Shown: piece after piece, positions 2,091 through 26,033 of the stretch
How the letters are laid out: each line of letters begins with the position of its first letter
Numbering within the stretch: the stretch's first letter is position 1
Assembly (NCBI GenBank): GCA_964604065.1
Contig: CAZRXQ010000002.1
Span: 1-29,123 of the forward strand
DNA: 29,123 nt
Source: an uncultured Eubacteriales bacterium
GTDB lineage: Bacteria > Bacillota > Clostridia > Oscillospirales > Acutalibacteraceae
Direction: 5' to 3'
Program-made: the position numbers and the translations under genes
The notes under the pieces: model-generated
What the model was told of the DNA's origin: nothing
The model's database searches: none
Seen by the model: the letters and a program-made list of their open reading frames with translations, nothing else

Positions 2091-3503
2091 TTGAAAAAAT
2101 TAAGTGATATTTACGCCGGTGCGCCCGATGTTCCGGTTAAAGACGTTAAAATAAATTCGAAAGAGGTAACCCCCGGGGACATATTTATTTGCACGAAGGG
2201 CGTTACCGCGGACAGGCACGATTTTATTGCGGATGCCGTAAAAAACGGCGCCGCTGCCGTTGTTGTAAGTAAAAAGGTCGAAGACCCGGGCGTTCCCGTT
2301 ATTACCGTCGAAAATACAAACAAGGAGCTTTATCATTTGGCGGGTGAGCTGTATTCGTATCCGCAAAACGAGCTTTCGATGATAGGCGTTACGGGGACAA
2401 ACGGCAAAACCTCGGTAGCGGAAATGGTTTATGCTGTTTTGGGTGATGAGTGCGCATATCTCGGTACAAACGGCAAAAAATATAAAAACCACTCGGAGAG
2501 GATTCGCAACACCACGCCCGACGTGGACAGGTCTTACAAATATTTCAGAGAGTTTTCGGATGCCGGATGTGACACCTGCGTTACGGAGGTTTCAAGCGAG
2601 GCAATGCTCAGACACCGCCTTGACGAGGTTCGGTTTGATGCATTCGTTCTTACGAACATTACGGAGGACCACCTCGACAAGCACGGAACGATTGAGAATT
2701 ACATTGAGTGTAAAGCAAACGCCTTTACACTTGTAAAGGACAATGGCTTTACAATCCTTAACAGCGGAAGCAATCACCTTGATAAAATCAAAGAAAAAGC
2801 CAAAGGCACTGTTTTAACCTACGGTTTTAACGAGGATGACGATTTGTATATTTCCCGTTGCGATTTCGGAAAGACGCTTTCGTTCGATTTTGTATATAAA
2901 AACAAAAAGTACACCGCAAACACAAGGCTTCACGGTAAATTTAACGCTTTGAACCTTGCGGCGGCATTCCTTGTGTGCGTAAGTCGCGGGATGTCTCCCG
3001 AAGAGATTTTGAAAAAAGCCGAGCTTTTAGAGCCCGTTGAAGGACGGTGCGAGTACCTCGATTTCGGGCAAAGCTTTGACATTGTTCTCGATTACGCCCA
3101 CACGGTGGATGCGCTCGAAAAGGTTCTCGACGAGCTTTCTCTTGCAAAGCGCGGACGTATTGTTACCGTCACGGGCTCTGCCGGCGGCAGAGAAAAAGAA
3201 AAGCGCCCGCTTATGGGAAAGACTGTTCTCGAAAAATCCGATTTTGTTATTTTTACGGAGGATGACCCGAGAAACGAGAGCGTGTATACGATTATTCGCG
3301 ATATGCTAAAGGGCGCACAGGGCAAAAGCAATTATACGGTAATAGGCAAGCGCGAGGATGCTATTCGCTACGCCGTTTTGACCGCCAGAAAAAACGACAC
3401 GATACTTATTGCAGGCAAGGGGCGCGACGAATATATGGCAATAGGCGACGAATATGTGCCGTATTGCGATTACGATGTAATTAAAAAATGCTTTAAAAAG
3501 TAA
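2091..3503 (+). CDS. murE: MurE-family UDP-MurNAc-dipeptide amino acid ligase, copy 1 (specificity loop DDPR)
   Basis: GVTGTNGKTS P-loop, TTPD, EVSSEA, TNITEDHLDKH, DYAHT, GGREKEKRPLMG, IAGKG. TTG 2091 preferred over GTG 2067 because it aligns with the copy 2 start (MKKLSDIY vs MKSLSEIY) and follows AAAGGA. Confidence 0.9.
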   Translation: MKKLSDIYAGAPDVPVKDVKINSKEVTPGDIFICTKGVTADRHDFIADAVKNGAAAVVVSKKVEDPGVPVITVENTNKELYHLAGELYSYPQNELSMIGVTGTNGKTSVAEMVYAVLGDECAYLGTNGKKYKNHSERIRNTTPDVDRSYKYFREFSDAGCDTCVTEVSSEAMLRHRLDEVRFDAFVLTNITEDHLDKHGTIENYIECKANAFTLVKDNGFTILNSGSNHLDKIKEKAKGTVLTYGFNEDDDLYISRCDFGKTLSFDFVYKNKKYTANTRLHGKFNALNLAAAFLVCVSRGMSPEEILKKAELLEPVEGRCEYLDFGQSFDIVLDYAHTVDALEKVLDELSLAKRGRIVTVTGSAGGREKEKRPLMGKTVLEKSDFVIFTEDDPRNESVYTIIRDMLKGAQGKSNYTVIGKREDAIRYAVLTARKNDTILIAGKGRDEYMAIGDEYVPYCDYDVIKKCFKK

Positions 3504-3574
3504 AAGTAATTTTAAATACAATTTCAATCTTTCGGGGGGATAATAAACTCAGTTGTATGTAAAGGAAGTTTGTT

Positions 3575-4996
3575 ATGAAAAGCCTAAGCGAGATTTATCC
3601 CGGCGCACCCGAGGTTAGTATAAAGGATGTTAAAATTAATTCAAAGGATGTAACACCCGGAGACATTTTTCTTTGCACAAAGGGCGTTACCGCCGACAGG
3701 CACGCATTCATTTTCGATGCGGTAAAAAACGGTGCAGCCGCCGTTGTCGTAAGCAAAAAGGTCGAAGACCCCGGTGTTCCCGTTATTACCGTTGAAGATA
3801 CGAATAAAGAGCTTTTTCATTTGGCGGGTGAGTTGTATTACTACCCGCAAAGAGAGCTTTCCATGATAGGCGTTACCGGCACAAACGGCAAAACCTCGGT
3901 AGCCGAAATGATTTATTCTTTTTTGGGCGAGGCTTGCGCGTATCTCGGCACGAACGGCAAAAAATGGAAGGGCAAATGTGAGCACGTCAGGAACACAACA
4001 CCCGACGTTGACAGGGCATACAAATATTTCAGAGAATATTTGGACTGCGGCTGTGACACCTGCGTTGCGGAAATTTCAAGTGAAGCAATGCTCAGGCACA
4101 GATTCGACGATATTTTGCTTGACGCGTGCGTGCTGACGAATATCACGGAGGATCATCTCGACAAGCACGGCTCACTCGATAATTATATTGAGTGTAAAGC
4201 AAATGCCTTCACACTTGTAAAGGATGATGGCTTTACAGTTCTCAACAGCGGCAGTAAGTACTTCGACCGCGTAAAAGAAAAGGCAAACGGAACTGTTTTA
4301 ACGTACGGCTTTAAAAAGACCGACGATATTTACATTTGTCGTTGCGAGCTTAAGGACAAGCTTTCCTTCGATTTTATTTACAAAGGGAAAAAGTACACCG
4401 TGAATACAAAATTAAGAGGCGACTTTAACGCGCTTAATCTTGCGGCGTCGTTTCTTGTTTGCTTAACACGCGGCAAAAGCCTTGAAGAGCTTATAGAAAA
4501 AGCGGAGGCGCTTGAGCCTGTTGAAGGAAGATTCGAATATCTCGATTTCGGGCAGGATTTTGAAATAGTTCTCGATTACGCCCACACGGAGGATGCGCTC
4601 GTAAAGGTTCTCGATGAGCTTTTAAGAACAAAAAAGGGGAGAATTATTACCGTAACAGGTGCGGCGGGCGGCAGAGAAAAAGAGAAAAGACCGCGAATGG
4701 GCAAAGCGGTTTTGTCAAGATCCGATTTTGTTGTGTTTACGGAGGAAAATTCGCGCAACGAAAAAACGGAGGACATTATAGACAGCCTTTTGTCGGATTC
4801 CGCGGAATACACGAATTACGCGGTTATTCCCAAAAGAAGCCTTGCGATAAATTATGCGCTTTCGACGGCGAAAGAAGGCGATACCGTTCTTATTGCGGGC
4901 AAAGGGCGTGACACTTATATGGCAGTAGGCGACGAGTATTTGTATTATTGCGATTACGACGAAATAGAAAAACACTTCGCAAACGGCGTGAAGTGA
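3575..4996 (+). CDS. murE: MurE-family ligase, copy 2 (specificity loop ENSR)
   Basis: Same Mur ligase motifs as copy 1; AAAGGA ribosome-binding site before ATG. Confidence 0.88.
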   Translation: MKSLSEIYPGAPEVSIKDVKINSKDVTPGDIFLCTKGVTADRHAFIFDAVKNGAAAVVVSKKVEDPGVPVITVEDTNKELFHLAGELYYYPQRELSMIGVTGTNGKTSVAEMIYSFLGEACAYLGTNGKKWKGKCEHVRNTTPDVDRAYKYFREYLDCGCDTCVAEISSEAMLRHRFDDILLDACVLTNITEDHLDKHGSLDNYIECKANAFTLVKDDGFTVLNSGSKYFDRVKEKANGTVLTYGFKKTDDIYICRCELKDKLSFDFIYKGKKYTVNTKLRGDFNALNLAASFLVCLTRGKSLEELIEKAEALEPVEGRFEYLDFGQDFEIVLDYAHTEDALVKVLDELLRTKKGRIITVTGAAGGREKEKRPRMGKAVLSRSDFVVFTEENSRNEKTEDIIDSLLSDSAEYTNYAVIPKRSLAINYALSTAKEGDTVLIAGKGRDTYMAVGDEYLYYCDYDEIEKHFANGVK

Positions 4997-5042: not shown

Positions 5043-5077
5043 TTGCACTTGACAACACCGCTGAAATATAATAAAAT
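5043..5077 (+). promoter_or_regulatory. Sigma-A promoter(s) for the acyl-CoA ligase
   Basis: TTGACA(5049)-17-TAAAAT(5072), with overlapping TTGCAC(5043)-18-TATAAT(5067). Confidence 0.7.
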
Positions 5078-13189: not shown

Positions 13190-14266
13190 TTAAATCATAG
13201 TGCGCTTGGGGAGTTTTATTATGAATTCCGAGCCCACGCCTTCTTTGCTTTTAACGTCAATAGAGCCTTCGGAGAGTTCTGTTATTTTCTTTACAAGCGA
13301 AAGACCCAAGCCGTTGCCTTCGGAGGAGTGGGAGGTGTCGCCCTGGTAAAATTTGTCGAAAATATGGCGGCGTGTGTGCTCGCTCATACCGCAACCCGTA
13401 TCCTTAAGCGAGACCTCTATAAAGTCAAAGCCGGAGCTTTCCTTAAGCGTTATTTCTCCGCCCTCGGGCGTGAACTTTACGGCGTTTGAAAAGAGGTTCA
13501 TCCATATGGTGTAAATAAGCTCGGGGTCTGCGTAAATAAAGGCGCGCTCTTCTATGTTTACAGAAAGCTTAATGTTTTTCTTTTCGAGGATTTCGTCGTA
13601 AAAGAAAATACATTCGGCAAGCTGTTCGCAAAGGTCGTATTCCTTCGGTGCGGGGGAGAGGCTGTTGTTTTCGAGCTTATTAAGCTTTAGCATATTTGTA
13701 ATAAGGCTGTTCATACGGTTTAAGGCGTACATTATATTATCCACGCATTCCGCACGGCGCGCATCGTCTGTGTCGTCCTCTGCAAGATACTGCGCGTTGT
13801 TGCCTATTATGGTAAGCGGCGTTTTCATCTCGTGCGAAACATTCGAGAAAAAGTCGAATTTTAAGGTTTCTATGGAGGAAAGCTCCTCTGCCATTTTGTT
13901 AAAGTCGAGAATCATCAAATCGAGATAATTGTACTTTTTGGGGGAGGAGTGAATCGTTTCGAGCCTTATTGAAAAGTCGCCGTCCGCAACCTTTTTTGCC
14001 GCTTCGGCAAGGCGCATAAGCGGCTCATCGTACGCTTTTTTTACTATGTAACGCGAGGTGACATTGATTATTGCGGCAGACACAAACCAATAAATTAAAA
14101 TGAGTACAAGCTGAACATAGCCGCTTACACCCATTTTCGAGCACAACAGGGAAAGCCCGGTGTGAAGTCCGCCTACGACGAACAGCACAAGAAGTGCACC
14201 TCTGAAAAAGTGCGTAAAAAGAAGGGAGTTGCGCTTGTATTGCTTTTTGGGGCTTGTTTTTTTCAT
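13190..14266 (-). CDS. Sensor histidine kinase (2 TM, HAMP, HisKA, HATPase)
   Basis: H-box SHEMKTPL, N-box NLFSNAVKFT, DTGCGM, IFDKFYQ, GNGLGL. Confidence 0.95.
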   Translation of the reverse strand: MKKTSPKKQYKRNSLLFTHFFRGALLVLFVVGGLHTGLSLLCSKMGVSGYVQLVLILIYWFVSAAIINVTSRYIVKKAYDEPLMRLAEAAKKVADGDFSIRLETIHSSPKKYNYLDLMILDFNKMAEELSSIETLKFDFFSNVSHEMKTPLTIIGNNAQYLAEDDTDDARRAECVDNIMYALNRMNSLITNMLKLNKLENNSLSPAPKEYDLCEQLAECIFFYDEILEKKNIKLSVNIEERAFIYADPELIYTIWMNLFSNAVKFTPEGGEITLKESSGFDFIEVSLKDTGCGMSEHTRRHIFDKFYQGDTSHSSEGNGLGLSLVKKITELSEGSIDVKSKEGVGSEFIIKLPKRTMI

Positions 14267-14934
14267 TTTAAAACCGCCTTATAGCCCAAGCCGTGCACGG
14301 TGACTATTTCAAAATCCTCACAGGAGGCAAATTTACTTCTGAGCTTTGTGATGTAAACGTCTACCGAGCGAAGCGTGGTGCTGTTGTCAACTCCCCAGAA
14401 TTCATCAAGAAGCTTTGCTCTTGAAAATGTCATTTTGGGATACGACAGAAGCTTAAACAAAATATTGAATTCTCTTACGGTAATGGGAATGTTTTCGCCG
14501 TTCAAGGTTACGGAAAGCTCGTCCGCGTCAAGCGTAAGCGTTTTTAAAGCAATCTTTCTGCTTGACGAAATATTGGAACGCCTTAAAAGCGCTTTTACGC
14601 GCAAAAGGAGCTCTTCGAAATCGAACGGCTTTACCATAAAGTCGTCAATGCCGACTCTGAAGCCCTTTTCCTTTGCCGAAAAATCATCACGCGCCGTTAC
14701 GAACATAATCGGAATGGTGCTGTTTGTTTTTCTTATGTTTTCGGCAAACTCAAAGCCGTCCGTGCCGGGCATCATAATGTCCGAAATTATAAGGTCGTAT
14801 ATTGTGCCGTTGGAGGCATTGTATGCTTCCGCGGGGCAAGAGCACCCTATGGCATTGTAACCGTTCTTTGAAAGAAACGAGCAGAGAACGGAATTAAGCT
14901 TGGGGTCATCTTCAACAACAAGTATGTTTATCAT
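14263..14934 (-). CDS. OmpR-family response regulator
   Basis: VEDD, DIMMP phospho-Asp, KPF, winged-helix tail VDVYITKLR...TVHGLGYK; 4-bp overlap with the kinase. Confidence 0.95.
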   Translation of the reverse strand: MINILVVEDDPKLNSVLCSFLSKNGYNAIGCSCPAEAYNASNGTIYDLIISDIMMPGTDGFEFAENIRKTNSTIPIMFVTARDDFSAKEKGFRVGIDDFMVKPFDFEELLLRVKALLRRSNISSSRKIALKTLTLDADELSVTLNGENIPITVREFNILFKLLSYPKMTFSRAKLLDEFWGVDNSTTLRSVDVYITKLRSKFASCEDFEIVTVHGLGYKAVLK

Positions 14935-16268: not shown

Positions 16269-16331
16269 AACAAAGGTACTAAAGGCAGTTGCCTTAAAAA
16301 TATTAATTAATTTGAAAAGGTGGTACACAAT

Positions 16332-17768
16332 ATGGGATTGAAACAGGCGGCAATGGGCATTACACTCAAAAAAGGCATTAAAGCCCTTAAGGAGGATTTT
16401 GACGGTAACTCGATTAAGTTCATTGATATGGGACTTAAGCTTTTTAAAGAGGACGACATCCGTTACAAATCGCTTATGCGCTTAAGACAGGGACTTACAA
16501 GACCCGGCAATATGTGGGCAGATTACATTAAGAAATTCTTTATGTACACCGACGCCGAGGTTTTAAGTAAGCTTACAAAGCCCTTTTTAAACGCGGTAAT
16601 TAACAGCTACGCTTTAAGAAAAGAAAATTCCGAAAAGTACGATTGCAACATTCCGTGGGCTATTCTTCTTGACCCCACAACGGCTTGCAATCTTCATTGC
16701 ACCGGCTGCTGGGCGGCAGACTACTCAAAGGCAACACAGCTTTCTTACGAGGATATTAACAAAATAGTAACAGAGGGCAAGGCTCTCGGTACATTCGTTT
16801 ACCTTTACACAGGCGGCGAGCCGCTTATGAAAAAGGACTTGCTTATAAGAATAGCAAAAGAAAATCCCGACTGCCTGTTTATGGCATTCACAAACGGTAC
16901 TCTCGTTGACGGTGCTTTTGCCGACGCACTTAAGGATGCGGGCAATATGTGGCCGATATTCTCCATTGAGGGTAACGAGGAAACAACCGATTCACGCCGC
17001 GGCGCAGGTACATACAAGGCTGTTCTTAACGGCATTAAGGAAGTAAGAGAACGCGGAGTTCCGTTCGGTGCATCTCTTTGCTACACAAAGGTTAATGCCG
17101 ATGTTATAGCCTCCGACGAAAACGCGGACTTCCTTATCGACCTCGGTGTTCTTTTCGCGTGGTTGTTCACATTTGTTCCCGTAGGTGTTGATTCCACACC
17201 CGAGCTTATGGCAACTCCCGAACAGCGCGAGCATATGTACAATCAGGTAAGAAAGTGGCGCTTTGAAGAAGGTAAGCAGAAGCCCATATTCACAATCGAC
17301 TTCTTCAACGACGGCGAATATGTAGGCGGATGTATTGCCGGCGGTAAGCAGTATTTCCACATTTCTCCCAACGGCGACTGCGAGCCCTGCGTATTTGCAC
17401 ACTATTCAACCGTTAATATTAAAGACGAAAACACTCATATGATAGACGTATTGAGAAGCCCGATGTTTATGGCTTACAGAAAGCGTCAGCCGTTCAGTGA
17501 CAATATGTTAAGACCGTGCCCCGTTATGGACCAGCCCGGTGCTCTTAAGAAAATGGTTCACGAAACAGGCGCTATGTCCACAGATTACAAGTGCCCCGAG
17601 AATGTTGACGACCTCTTTGCGAAAACCGTTAATACGGCGGCTAAGTGGAAGGAAACAGCAGACAGAATGGCAGACAAATACGGCTTTACAAAGGTTCGCT
17701 TAAGAAGTATCGCGCTTTACGACGATGCCGAAAGCCGCCACATTCACGACTTTAATGATTTCGAATAA
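16332..17768 (+). CDS. Radical SAM protein with SPASM/twitch-like C-terminal domain
   Basis: CNLHCTGC (CxxxCxxC), TGGEP, FTNG, GGCIAGG...DCEPC...RPCP; ATG 16332 after AAAAGGTGG. Confidence 0.9.
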   Translation: MGLKQAAMGITLKKGIKALKEDFDGNSIKFIDMGLKLFKEDDIRYKSLMRLRQGLTRPGNMWADYIKKFFMYTDAEVLSKLTKPFLNAVINSYALRKENSEKYDCNIPWAILLDPTTACNLHCTGCWAADYSKATQLSYEDINKIVTEGKALGTFVYLYTGGEPLMKKDLLIRIAKENPDCLFMAFTNGTLVDGAFADALKDAGNMWPIFSIEGNEETTDSRRGAGTYKAVLNGIKEVRERGVPFGASLCYTKVNADVIASDENADFLIDLGVLFAWLFTFVPVGVDSTPELMATPEQREHMYNQVRKWRFEEGKQKPIFTIDFFNDGEYVGGCIAGGKQYFHISPNGDCEPCVFAHYSTVNIKDENTHMIDVLRSPMFMAYRKRQPFSDNMLRPCPVMDQPGALKKMVHETGAMSTDYKCPENVDDLFAKTVNTAAKWKETADRMADKYGFTKVRLRSIALYDDAESRHIHDFNDFE

Positions 17769-19353
17769 ACAAAGCCCGAATATCCGCAGCACCCATCGCC
17801 TGCCGAGAATATCGGCGGGCGAGTGCGGCGTTTCTTTGAACGGGATAAATAATCTGTTAGAGGATTTTAAAAATAATAATGTAAGCCTGCACAGCTTTAT
17901 GCTTTTAAAAGACGGTGCGGTTGCCTTTGAATGCTATGCATATCCTTTTTCCGAAGACGACACGCATTCTGTTTATTCCGTAAGCAAAAGCATTTTGAGT
18001 ATAGCGCTTTCGTTTGCCTTAAACGAAGGACTTTTGTCGCTTGACACGCGCTTTGTTGATGTGTTCCCGAAATACAAAAGCACACGCGACAAATGCTTAA
18101 AAAAGCTTTCCGTGTACGACCTTATCTCAATGCGAAGCGGAAAGCGGCTTTCCGTTCTTATGAAAAAGAGCGACGACTGGGTAGATGATTTTGCGGGCGC
18201 TCCGTGGGATTTTGAGCCCGGGACGGATTTTCGCTATGTAAACGAAAACTATTACGTTCTTTCGGAGATGCTTTGCACGCTTTCGGGAATGTCGCTTACA
18301 GAATATCTTACGCCGCGACTTTATGAGCCGCTCGGAATAGAACCGCCCTTTTGGGAGACCTCTCCGAAAGGATACGAAGCGGGCGGGTGGGGAATTCACC
18401 TTAAAACAGAGGATATTGCAAAGCTTGTTTTGTGCTGTCAAAACGACGGAGTATACGAAGGCAAACAGGTAATCGACGCAGAATACATTAAAAAAGCAAC
18501 GTCGAAATTAAGCGAGACCTCGGGCTCTCAAAGAAAGCCCGACAGCAGAGCGGGCTACGGCTACGGCTTTTGGCAATGTGAAAATAAGTATGCGGATTTT
18601 CGCCTTGAAGGAATGTATTCGCAATATGCGATTTCTCTTAAGGCGTTTAATGCGTGCATCGTCACAACCTCTACCTGCGCCGATTTACAGCTTACGCTTG
18701 ACGTTTTGTGGAGACACCTTGAAGAGCTTTTTGAGGGCAAAAACGATACAAAAAAGTTTTTTGAGCTTCCTTCGGAATTACCCCTAAAAAGCGAAAGAAG
18801 AAAAGAAACGGAAGAAAGAATATCCGGTTCTCTGTATAAAATCAAAAGAAAGCGGTTTTTAAAAAGAATCGGACGCGAGGTTTCCGTTTTTCCGATGCAG
18901 ACAATATATTTTGCAAAGGAAAAGGGCGGAAACATCGACAATGTTCGTTTTGATTTTGAAAAGGACAGGCTTTATTTTTCGTGGAACGAGCACAAGGTGT
19001 TCGATAATAAAATCGCCTGCGGCTTAAACGGACAATGGGAAATTTCCGAAATGACGCTCGGCGAAGTGAAGCTTCGCGTTTACTCATATGCGCGCTGGCT
19101 TGACGACGAAAAGCTTGAAATAACGGTTTTACCCGTAGGCGAAGCCGCGTTAAGGCGGTTTGTGTTTAAATTCTCGGGCGACCGTATTACGTTTTATCCA
19201 GACGCAAAGCCGTCTCTTCGCGAAAATTCGAGGTCTGTGGGCGAAACGATTAAATGTGTTCTTCCGGGGGCGTATTTTAAAATGTGGGTAGACATTCTCG
19301 TGCCGAAGGTCACGTCCATTTTACAGCCGCCCCACAAAGGCAAAAAAATATAA
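17755..19353 (+). CDS. Serine hydrolase, beta-lactamase/PBP-like (class C/esterase family) with C-terminal extension
   Basis: YSVSKS (SxxK), FRYVN (YxN), LYEPLGI, GGWG, GYGYGFW; ATG 17755 overlaps the radical SAM stop. Confidence 0.85.
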   Translation: MISNKQSPNIRSTHRLPRISAGECGVSLNGINNLLEDFKNNNVSLHSFMLLKDGAVAFECYAYPFSEDDTHSVYSVSKSILSIALSFALNEGLLSLDTRFVDVFPKYKSTRDKCLKKLSVYDLISMRSGKRLSVLMKKSDDWVDDFAGAPWDFEPGTDFRYVNENYYVLSEMLCTLSGMSLTEYLTPRLYEPLGIEPPFWETSPKGYEAGGWGIHLKTEDIAKLVLCCQNDGVYEGKQVIDAEYIKKATSKLSETSGSQRKPDSRAGYGYGFWQCENKYADFRLEGMYSQYAISLKAFNACIVTTSTCADLQLTLDVLWRHLEELFEGKNDTKKFFELPSELPLKSERRKETEERISGSLYKIKRKRFLKRIGREVSVFPMQTIYFAKEKGGNIDNVRFDFEKDRLYFSWNEHKVFDNKIACGLNGQWEISEMTLGEVKLRVYSYARWLDDEKLEITVLPVGEAALRRFVFKFSGDRITFYPDAKPSLRENSRSVGETIKCVLPGAYFKMWVDILVPKVTSILQPPHKGKKI

Positions 19354-19404: not shown

Positions 19405-19755
19405 TTATATTATACCGAGACCGAAGCTCACCGAAAGAGCCTTGTTTATTCGGTCCATATCATCATCGGGCAAATTGCCCATACGTTCTTTAAGGCGTGT
19501 TTTATCAATCGTTCTTATTTGCTCCAAAAGGACAACGGAATCCTTCGAAAGACCGCATTCGTCTGCATTGACGCTTATGTGCGTGGGAAGGTTTGCTTTA
19601 AGCTTTTTGCTTGTAATCGCCGCGGCAATTACAGTCGGGCTGAATTTATTTCCGACGTCGTTTTGAACAATAAGTACGGGTCTTGTTCCGCCTTGTTCCG
19701 AGCCTACTACGGGGCTTAGGTCTGCGTAGTATATATCTCCTCGCTTTACACTCAC
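19405..19755 (-). CDS. mazF: MazF/PemK (NdoA-like) endoribonuclease toxin, 116 aa
   Basis: VKRGDIYYADLSPVVGSEQGGTRPVLIVQND, PTVIAAAITS, LLEQIRTIDK; GTG 19755 after GGAGAG. Confidence 0.95.
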   Translation of the reverse strand: MSVKRGDIYYADLSPVVGSEQGGTRPVLIVQNDVGNKFSPTVIAAAITSKKLKANLPTHISVNADECGLSKDSVVLLEQIRTIDKTRLKERMGNLPDDDMDRINKALSVSFGLGII

Positions 19756-19874
19756 GGTATCACTCTCCGTAAATTTATTTACATCGTTAGTATTGTCATT
19801 TTCGCTGTAAATAATCAAATTTTTTTGAGGAGCACTCGGTATTATAATATACAATATCGCCCAAAGTGTTATAC

Positions 19875-19903
19875 TTGACAATAATGTCGAAAAGGTGTAA
19901 TAT
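19875..19903 (+). promoter_or_regulatory. Promoter of metK
   Basis: TTGACA-17-TAATAT. Confidence 0.65.
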
Positions 19904-25288: not shown

Positions 25289-25298
25289 TAAATTGTGA

Positions 25299-25409
25299 AA
25301 GCTTCGGGGCGGGGTGAGATTCCCCACCGGCAGTAAAGTCTGCGAGCCGATTTTCGGCTGATCGGGTGAAATTCCCGAACCGACGGTAAAGTCCGGATGA
25401 TAGAAGCTG
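25299..25409 (+). ncRNA. FMN riboswitch (RFN element)
   Basis: agcttcGGGGCGGGGTGAGATTCCCcACCGGCAGTAAAGTCTGCGAGCC...TGATCGGGTGAAATTCCCGAACCGACGGTAAAGTCCGGATGatagaagct matches the RFN pattern; P1 agcttc/gaagct. Confidence 0.95.
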
Positions 25410-25427
25410 TAGGCAAAAGCCGTTTTT

Positions 25428-25458
25428 ATCGCCCCGAAAATTTCGGAGCGATTTTTTT
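25428..25458 (+). terminator. Riboswitch-controlled terminator (expression platform)
   Basis: atcgccccgaa/ttcggagcgat stem plus T6; its 5' arm cgccccgaa is complementary to ttcggggcg (25303-25311), giving an antiterminator. Confidence 0.85.
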
Positions 25459-25475
25459 ATAAAGGCGATGATGTT

Positions 25476-26033
25476 ATGTCAAAATCCACAACAAGGTCAA
25501 GGCTTATTAAGCTTACAACAGCGGCTGTTTTAACGGCGCTTTCGCTTGTATTTACGTTTACATTGCGTTTTCCGATGTTCACAAGCTTTTACGAAATGGA
25601 GTTTTCGGATTTTCCCGTGCTTGTAACAACATTTCTTTTAGGGCCTGTTTACGGAATTGTATCTCTTTTTACGGTTTGCCTTATTCAGGCAACAACCGTC
25701 AGCGCTTCAAGCGGTATAATAGGCTTTTTAATGCATTTTATATCATCGGGCGCTATGATTCTTATTGTGTATTTCATAAGAAAAAAGCTCGGCGGTATAA
25801 AGGGTGCGATAATATCGGGCATTCTCGGCGTAACGGTAATGGTTCTTATAATGATTCCGATGAATATTTGGCTTACAACCGTGTTTATGGGGCTTCCCGT
25901 GGGCGAATTCGTAAAGGGCTTTCTCGGCGTGTGTATCGGATTTAATCTGATAAAAGCATCCTCTAATGTGCTTATTTTTTCCTTTGCATACCCCACTTTA
26001 AACAAACAGTTCAAAAAGCTTTTAAAGCAGTAA
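25476..26033 (+). CDS. ribU: ECF transporter S component, riboflavin-specific (RibU-like)
   Basis: Six-TM pattern, FYEMEFSDFPVL, LGPVYG, GFLMHF, FNLIK; lies under an FMN riboswitch. Confidence 0.85.
   Translation: MSKSTTRSRLIKLTTAAVLTALSLVFTFTLRFPMFTSFYEMEFSDFPVLVTTFLLGPVYGIVSLFTVCLIQATTVSASSGIIGFLMHFISSGAMILIVYFIRKKLGGIKGAIISGILGVTVMVLIMIPMNIWLTTVFMGLPVGEFVKGFLGVCIGFNLIKASSNVLIFSFAYPTLNKQFKKLLKQ

Follow-up and report, generated by a model that had tools for sequence, protein, structure and literature searches.

The amino acid at position 3 of the peptidoglycan stem sets the cross-link chemistry of the bacterial wall, its sensitivity to many lysins and amidases, and its recognition by NOD1, the host sensor specific for diaminopimelate (DAP). 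The specificity of MurE, the ligase that adds this residue, has been described for a few enzymes. DAP-adding MurE contacts the distal carboxylate of DAP through the Asn and Arg of its DNPR loop, while the Staphylococcus aureus enzyme holds lysine (Lys) via Asp406 and Glu460 (Ruane et al., PMC3829189). The MurE of Thermotoga maritima has a DDPR loop and, according to a preprint (bioRxiv 10.1101/2022.01.05.475093, citing Boniface 2006), puts both L-Lys and D-Lys into the wall and uses DAP efficiently in vitro. Here we describe a tandem pair of murE genes in a 29,123-nucleotide stretch of DNA (the window), which is contig C2 of a metagenome-assembled genome (MAG) from an Acutalibacteraceae-like genus. 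The pair is of foreign origin and has been duplicated and kept under selection beside the native murE of its host, with loops that read DDPR in copy 1 and ENSR in copy 2.

To our knowledge, most uncultured gut Clostridia and small-genome Bacilli have no described peptidoglycan chemotype. Our literature search found no paper on tandem murE paralogues in bacteria, nor on a pattern of several loop-variant MurEs per genome. What is called the 'second murE' in Streptomycetaceae is a DUF1727 (MurT-like) protein.

Results

Two intact murE genes in tandem

Copy 1 (2091-3503, + strand) encodes 470 amino acids and copy 2 (3575-4996, + strand) encodes 473. The open reading frame (ORF) of copy 1 opens at a GTG at 2067, but the start is most likely the TTG at 2091, nine bases 3' of AAAGGA, a start that yields the N-terminus seen in its relatives, MKKLSDIY. 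The ATG at 3575 is the start of copy 2, with AAAGGAAG upstream. The two proteins are 73% identical over 468 residues without a gap. Both contain the three Mur-ligase domains (PF01225, PF08245 and PF02875) and both pass the murE model TIGR01085 (417.5 bits for copy 1 and 389.8 for copy 2, cut-off 257.3).

Alignment with E. coli K-12 MurE places the core motifs TGTNGKTS, the Glu of E-x-SS, EDHLD and DYAHT in both copies. The Lys of YIECKANAF aligns to the carbamylated Lys224 and the Arg of GGRE (GGxR) to Arg389, again in both. A structure was predicted with AlphaFold for copy 2 only (mean predicted local distance difference test 93.9, predicted template modelling (TM) score 0.92). In Foldseek comparisons this model superposes on S. 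aureus MurE (4C13) with a TM score of 0.92 and a root-mean-square deviation of 2.2 Å and on E. coli MurE (1E8C) with a TM score of 0.91, MurF and MurC giving lower scores. By domains, family scores and core residues, both copies are predicted to be intact, full MurE enzymes, and copy 2 also by its modelled fold.

The loop aligned to E. coli DNPR reads DDPR in copy 1 (3261-3272, + strand, encoded by GATGACCCGAGA) and ENSR in copy 2 (4745-4756, + strand, encoded by GAAAATTCGCGC). Both copies have GKGRD (3414-3428 and 4898-4912, + strand) where E. coli has GKGHE. The initial annotation of the window had described two complete murE-like genes in tandem after typA, with an intact catalytic core and these same loops and GKGRD motifs. 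The ORFs, domain and family searches, translations and alignment agree with it on each of these points. It had also reported mraY, murD, murF and ftsI to be missing nearby; indeed, the rest of the window contains none of these and no further mur or fts gene.

A native murE and a DAP supply in the same genome

The MAG measures 1.24 Mb in 157 contigs and is 68% complete. On contig C16 it carries a full division and cell wall (dcw) cluster in the order mraZ, rsmH, ftsL, a penicillin-binding protein gene, murE, murF, mraY, ftsW, murG and on to ftsZ. This murE, the third of the genome, is of the DNPR/GKGHE type, so that the housekeeping DNPR gene suspected in the initial annotation does exist and is dcw-linked. 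Between its product and the housekeeping MurEs of congeneric species, identity is 45-51%; with the copies in the window it is about 33-35%.

Based on a sample of 61 genomes, the genus, host included, is predicted to make meso-DAP by the route of meso-DAP dehydrogenase (Ddh), which scores above the cut-off in 57 of them. As dapF is found in only 8/61 genomes of this Ddh-using genus, we rejected it as a marker of DAP synthesis in the host. The genome of the window (G000) contains dapA. Its Ddh gene (C68:4175-4957) has a low family score because a run of about 100 N interrupts it; a degenerate Ddh was therefore considered and dismissed.

The pair derives from gut Bacilli

The best 120 database relatives of copy 2 are all about 470 amino acids long. 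All have DDPR, except for one ENSR orthologue (P0003), and nearly all have GKGRD. The closest relatives outside the genus (52-62% identity) come from records of uncultured small-genome gut Bacilli, with labels such as Candidatus Onthousia, Scybalousia, Faecenecus, Clostridium sp. CAG:451 and 'uncultured Tenericutes/Bacilli'; a few of the relatives' labels are probably binning errors. The extra MurE type is 52-62% identical to MurEs of Bacilli compared to 33-37% to the genus's own. In a careful tree of extra-type MurEs together with the dcw MurE, a single clade (100/100) unites the extra MurEs of the genus and is nested inside the DDPR clade of Bacilli, with the dcw MurE far outside. A second tree of 107 rows, built from the donor order, places this clade in the same position.

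Four of the 61 genus genomes (G000, G020, G073 and G008) carry the extra type, always beside the same AMP-binding ligase gene and, on contigs long enough to tell (G000, G008 and L101, an independent metagenome contig), directly after typA. The four carriers also have the most similar AMP-ligase genes, a coincidence that fits a single acquisition in one subclade. Both the G+C content and the G+C content at third codon positions of the two copies equal those of the flanks; the transfer is therefore not recent. An empty insertion site could not be demonstrated, as genus members without the extra gene differ in gene order around the AMP-ligase. Taken together, tree and identities identify the pair as the product of one old horizontal transfer of a DDPR/GKGRD MurE from Bacilli into an Acutalibacteraceae-like subclade.

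The donor type is itself predicted to be a true position-3 ligase, because it is the sole murE in many Bacilli genomes and mraY is present in all five such genomes checked. It is the only murE in 4/5 of the Bacilli genomes reached from the relatives' loci. The donor-order sample (the order of G041, gut Bacilli) comprises 81 genomes, 73 with murE, and in 13 of these 73 DDPR is the only MurE. The suggestion that DDPR/GKGRD is special to this locus consequently falls: it is the ordinary signature of a large clade of Bacilli.

Copy 2 changed in a burst and is now conserved

The tandem pair itself is seen only in G000 and L101. Since L101 comes from another sample and has the identical order typA-murE-murE-AMP-ligase, the pair is not an assembly artefact. 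The contig of G020 ends 297 bp upstream of a single copy, in a short tandem repeat (L102:1-297) with no MurE coding; this repeat may explain the break in the assembly. In G073 the contig is cut inside the extra murE, giving a count of at least one.

In the tree, copy 2 joins copy 1, the G020 copy and P0006 in an unresolved fork. Its stem branch measures 0.31 compared to 0.063 for copy 1, that is, copy 2 evolved about five times faster after the duplication. We located the changes at 167 columns that are at least 95% conserved among 118 clade members. Copy 1 departs at 2 of these columns, both shared with copy 2, which departs at 11. The nine departures specific to copy 2 are L177F, T200S, I222V, S363A, D391E, D392N, P393S, D404S and P457Y. 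Six of them fall in the C-terminal, amino-acid-binding domain, including the three consecutive loop changes D391E, D392N and P393S, which hit columns that are 100% invariant in the 118 relatives. ENSR is absent from these 118 close relatives, from 111 distant representatives and from 103 MurEs of the donor order, so the loop that the initial annotation could not place among characterised enzymes is unusual on this wider comparison as well. These data show a tandem duplication in this species followed by a burst in copy 2 that was centred on the amino-acid-binding domain and turned DDPR into ENSR.

The ratio of nonsynonymous to synonymous substitution rates (dN/dS) between the window and L101 is 0.069 for copy 1 and 0.061 for copy 2, at dS values of 0.54-0.65 (0.65 for copy 2). 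The neighbouring DHHW gene has a similar ratio (0.066). ENSR is conserved in L101, and copy 2 has neither stops nor frameshifts. Low dN/dS and the retention of ENSR indicate that copy 2 is neither decaying nor drifting, and both copies are, by these substitution rates, held by strong purifying selection since the burst. That both extra genes are intact and constrained is accordingly upheld by dN/dS, by core residues and by the fold of copy 2.

Loop motifs and the amino acid added

Compared to the DAP-type DNPR loop, copy 1 keeps only the Arg; copy 2 keeps Asn and Arg, with Asp changed to Glu and Pro to Ser. Glu468 of GKGHE, also typical of DAP enzymes, is replaced in the GKGRD of both copies. 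The L-Lys-type loop D(D/N)P(N/A) lacks the Arg that both copies retain, and the L-Lys equivalog model NF010628 is failed by both (310.9 and 292.8 bits, cut-off 536). The DDPR loop of T. maritima is present in copy 1 and absent from copy 2. By sequence, the closest solved enzymes are the MurEs of S. aureus (273 bits) and T. maritima (260), that of E. coli scoring lower (229).

The DAP-ligase equivalog model NF001126 (cut-off 373) is passed by copy 1 with 438.6 bits and by copy 2 with 405.1. This model passes every loop type that we tried (DNPR, DDPR, DDPH and ENSR), and its name therefore says nothing on substrate. For the same reason, automatic annotation calls all of these enzymes 'DAP ligase', hiding the diversity of their loops.

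Since the T. maritima DDPR enzyme takes Lys as well as DAP, copy 1, with the same loop and its Arg, may by analogy accept a broad range of substrates. Having regained the Asn and kept the Arg, copy 2 could lie closer to the DAP type than copy 1 does. The initial annotation had proposed that both enzymes insert non-DAP residues. What stands of this proposal is that these are real, selected accessory MurEs, one of them with a unique loop. 'Non-DAP' does not follow from the motifs: a DDPR enzyme takes DAP in vitro, ENSR retains both residues that contact DAP, and the host makes meso-DAP.

The donors do not settle the substrate either. Four DDPR-only Bacilli genomes lack dapF, lysA and Ddh, and three of the four also lack dapA. 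A Lys substrate inferred from such a missing DAP pathway was nevertheless rejected, as dapB occurs in only 1/81 donor-order genomes, yet 36 of their MurEs are of the DNPR/GKGHE type. Judging by this gene content, organisms throughout the order seem to build their wall with a diamino acid supplied from outside. With scavenging required throughout, the absence of the pathway does not discriminate between substrates.

Several MurEs per genome in the donor order

In 30 of the 73 murE-bearing donor-order genomes there are two or three MurE paralogues, whose loops differ. DDPR with EDPR is the most frequent combination (7), followed by DDPH with DNPR (4, in tandem), DDLH with DNPR (3) and DDPR with DNPR (3). 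Rarer loops in the order include DNSR, DNNR, DDNN, EDPG, EDPQ, DDPA, DDPF and DHPG. The donor-order tree contains a DNPR clade with nested DDPH and DDLH tandem duplicates, a DDPR/EDPR clade that includes the window pair, and a third clade with odd loops. Such nested duplicates with changed loops show that duplication followed by a loop change is recurrent, the window pair being one case carried into another class.

Tandem murE pairs were also seen at individual loci of small-genome gut Bacilli: L156:1408-4255 (G090), L161:110-2886 (G106), L158:67-2835 (G103), L164 (G152), L175 (G156) and L227 (G115). They combine a DNPR/GKGHE copy with a DDPH or DDLH copy or, in G115, EDPG with DDPC.

Transcription signals and neighbouring genes

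Promoters and terminators were called by pattern match only. A terminator-like stem-loop follows typA (1850-1877, + strand), and a promoter-like site (TTGAAA-17-TATTAT, with TG before the second hexamer) lies ahead of copy 1 (1932-1960, + strand). The 71-bp gap between the copies contains no terminator by the same patterns, and another terminator-like stem-loop lies at the end of copy 2 (4973-4995, + strand). This arrangement fits a separate unit, and the pair is probably transcribed as its own two-gene unit. A strong promoter-like site (11/12 match) for the gene after copy 2 is found at 5049-5077. We searched for a lysine riboswitch or a T-box upstream of the pair and found none. A search for sequencing runs as evidence of transcription listed none, either for the pair or for copy 2 by itself.

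Upstream of the pair lies typA. Downstream are genes for the AMP-binding ligase, a flavin adenine dinucleotide (FAD) protein and the DHHW protein. The distance from the extra murE to the AMP-ligase is about 150 bp in the window compared to about 1.1 kb (L024:3136-4234) in G008, which has a single copy.

Further along, the window encodes a two-component system, with a histidine kinase (13190-14266, - strand) and a response regulator (14263-14934, - strand). It faces three + strand genes that extend up to 19353, for an unknown 367-amino-acid protein, a radical SAM enzyme (16320-17768) and a 542-amino-acid protein of the beta-lactamase/transpeptidase family (17725-19353). Next comes a PemK/MazF-family toxin gene (19405-19881, - strand), whose 158-amino-acid ORF extends N-terminally beyond the 109-residue domain. 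Finally, a flavin mononucleotide (FMN) riboswitch (117.5 bits) precedes the S component of an energy-coupling factor (ECF) transporter, probably a riboflavin importer (25296-26033).

Discussion

With moderate confidence, we propose that the extra copies are specialised in their amino-acid preference. The pair would act alongside the native, dcw-encoded DNPR MurE, the three enzymes diverging at stem position 3 in kinetics or in the amino acid they prefer. A cell with such enzymes could thereby widen or switch its position-3 residue, the candidates being meso-DAP, L- or D-Lys, and possibly a further diamino acid or DAP-like residue. The recurrence in the donor order of duplication and subsequent loop change counts as a precedent. 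Several observations nonetheless pull the other way. Loop motifs are poor predictors of substrate: the A409R change in S. aureus MurE conferred no DAP activity, and the selectivity of this enzyme comes partly from the cytoplasmic lysine pool (PMC3829189). E. coli is killed by a strictly Lys-adding MurE (PMC3829189), so that a DAP-type host may tolerate only DAP-compatible enzymes. Three other species of the genus have one extra copy and 57/61 genomes have none. In addition, no FemAB-type bridge enzyme was found in the genome, at its 68% completeness.

A competing account, which we regard as possible but doubtful, is that all three enzymes add meso-DAP and that the extra copies are isozymes serving flux, regulation or robustness. 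The loop differences would then be neutral, or would re-adapt a foreign enzyme to a DAP-rich cytoplasm, ENSR restoring the Asn of DNPR. Ddh in nearly all of the genus and dapA in the host are consistent with this account, as are the Arg kept in both loops and the Asn in that of copy 2. So are the efficient use of DAP in vitro by the T. maritima DDPR enzyme, as given in the preprint (bioRxiv 10.1101/2022.01.05.475093), and a DNSR loop in a sole MurE placed among DNPR relatives. The pass of NF001126 by both copies would point the same way, but it has no weight for a model that accepts DDPH and DDPR types too. Against isozymes, plain redundancy is hard to reconcile with a genome of roughly 1.8 Mb that keeps three murE genes under constraint, and the burst in copy 2 targets columns that are otherwise invariant.

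It appears improbable to us that one or both copies have been recruited to a different acceptor, such as another polymer or, as in group-B peptidoglycan, the alpha-carboxyl of D-Glu. MurT, CapB and cyanophycin synthetase are established cases in which the Mur-ligase fold serves other ligations, and the donor order does contain very odd loops (DDNN, EDPG, DHPG). Both copies nevertheless keep the N-terminal UDP-binding domain and all core residues, the same clade provides the only MurE of many mraY-bearing genomes, and the model of copy 2 can be superposed on MurE from end to end. We give very little credence to the idea that copy 2 is an inactive duplicate or one in decay, or that the pair arose in assembly or binning. 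The larger number of conserved-site substitutions in copy 2 and the fragmentation and incompleteness of the MAG could be cited for it. It is contradicted by the low dN/dS of copy 2 at an appreciable dS, by its undisrupted frame and confident fold, by the same tandem order in an independent sample, and by typA and AMP-ligase flanks that are 83-99% identical to those of genus members.

More broadly, and tentatively, gut Firmicutes might carry an undescribed 'MurE repertoire', in which duplication, loop rebuilding and transfer between classes provide two or three position-3 ligases per cell and hence mixed or switchable stems. If so, the DDPR/ENSR pair and the DNPR enzyme would together exemplify this repertoire with three enzymes, and such stems would change what NOD1, lysins, amidases and cross-linking enzymes see. 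The window pair and the 30/73 multi-MurE genomes make mixed stems in single cells a testable question. Moreover, a foreign, duplicated, loop-rebuilt and selected MurE offers concrete enzymes for studying how MurE specificity evolves.

Compared to described systems, the pair resembles the T. maritima MurE (PDB 4BUB) in family and fold and, for copy 1, in the DDPR loop with its Arg. It differs from it in having GKGRD in both copies rather than GRGHE, in the ENSR loop of copy 2, and in being accessory where the T. maritima enzyme is the sole MurE. The S. aureus L-Lys ligase (PDB 4C12/4C13) is the best solved match by sequence and fold and shares the Arg in K-G-R-[DE] and an acidic residue at the position of Asp406; its loop, in contrast, is DNPA without Arg, and its Glu460 is Asp in the window copies. 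With the E. coli-type DAP enzymes, including the host's own dcw MurE, the pair has in common the predicted reaction chemistry, the domains, the core residues and the equivalent of Arg416, and in copy 2 only, that of Asn414. It departs from them in DDPR or ENSR for DNPR and in Asp for Glu468, and from the dcw murE also in its location outside the dcw cluster and its foreign origin. The pair nests in the clade of the DDPR/GKGRD MurE of gut Bacilli, often their only MurE, with which it shares GKGRD and, in copy 1, DDPR. Unlike that enzyme, the window pair adds to a native DNPR MurE in a member of the Clostridia, and it is duplicated, with one loop rebuilt.

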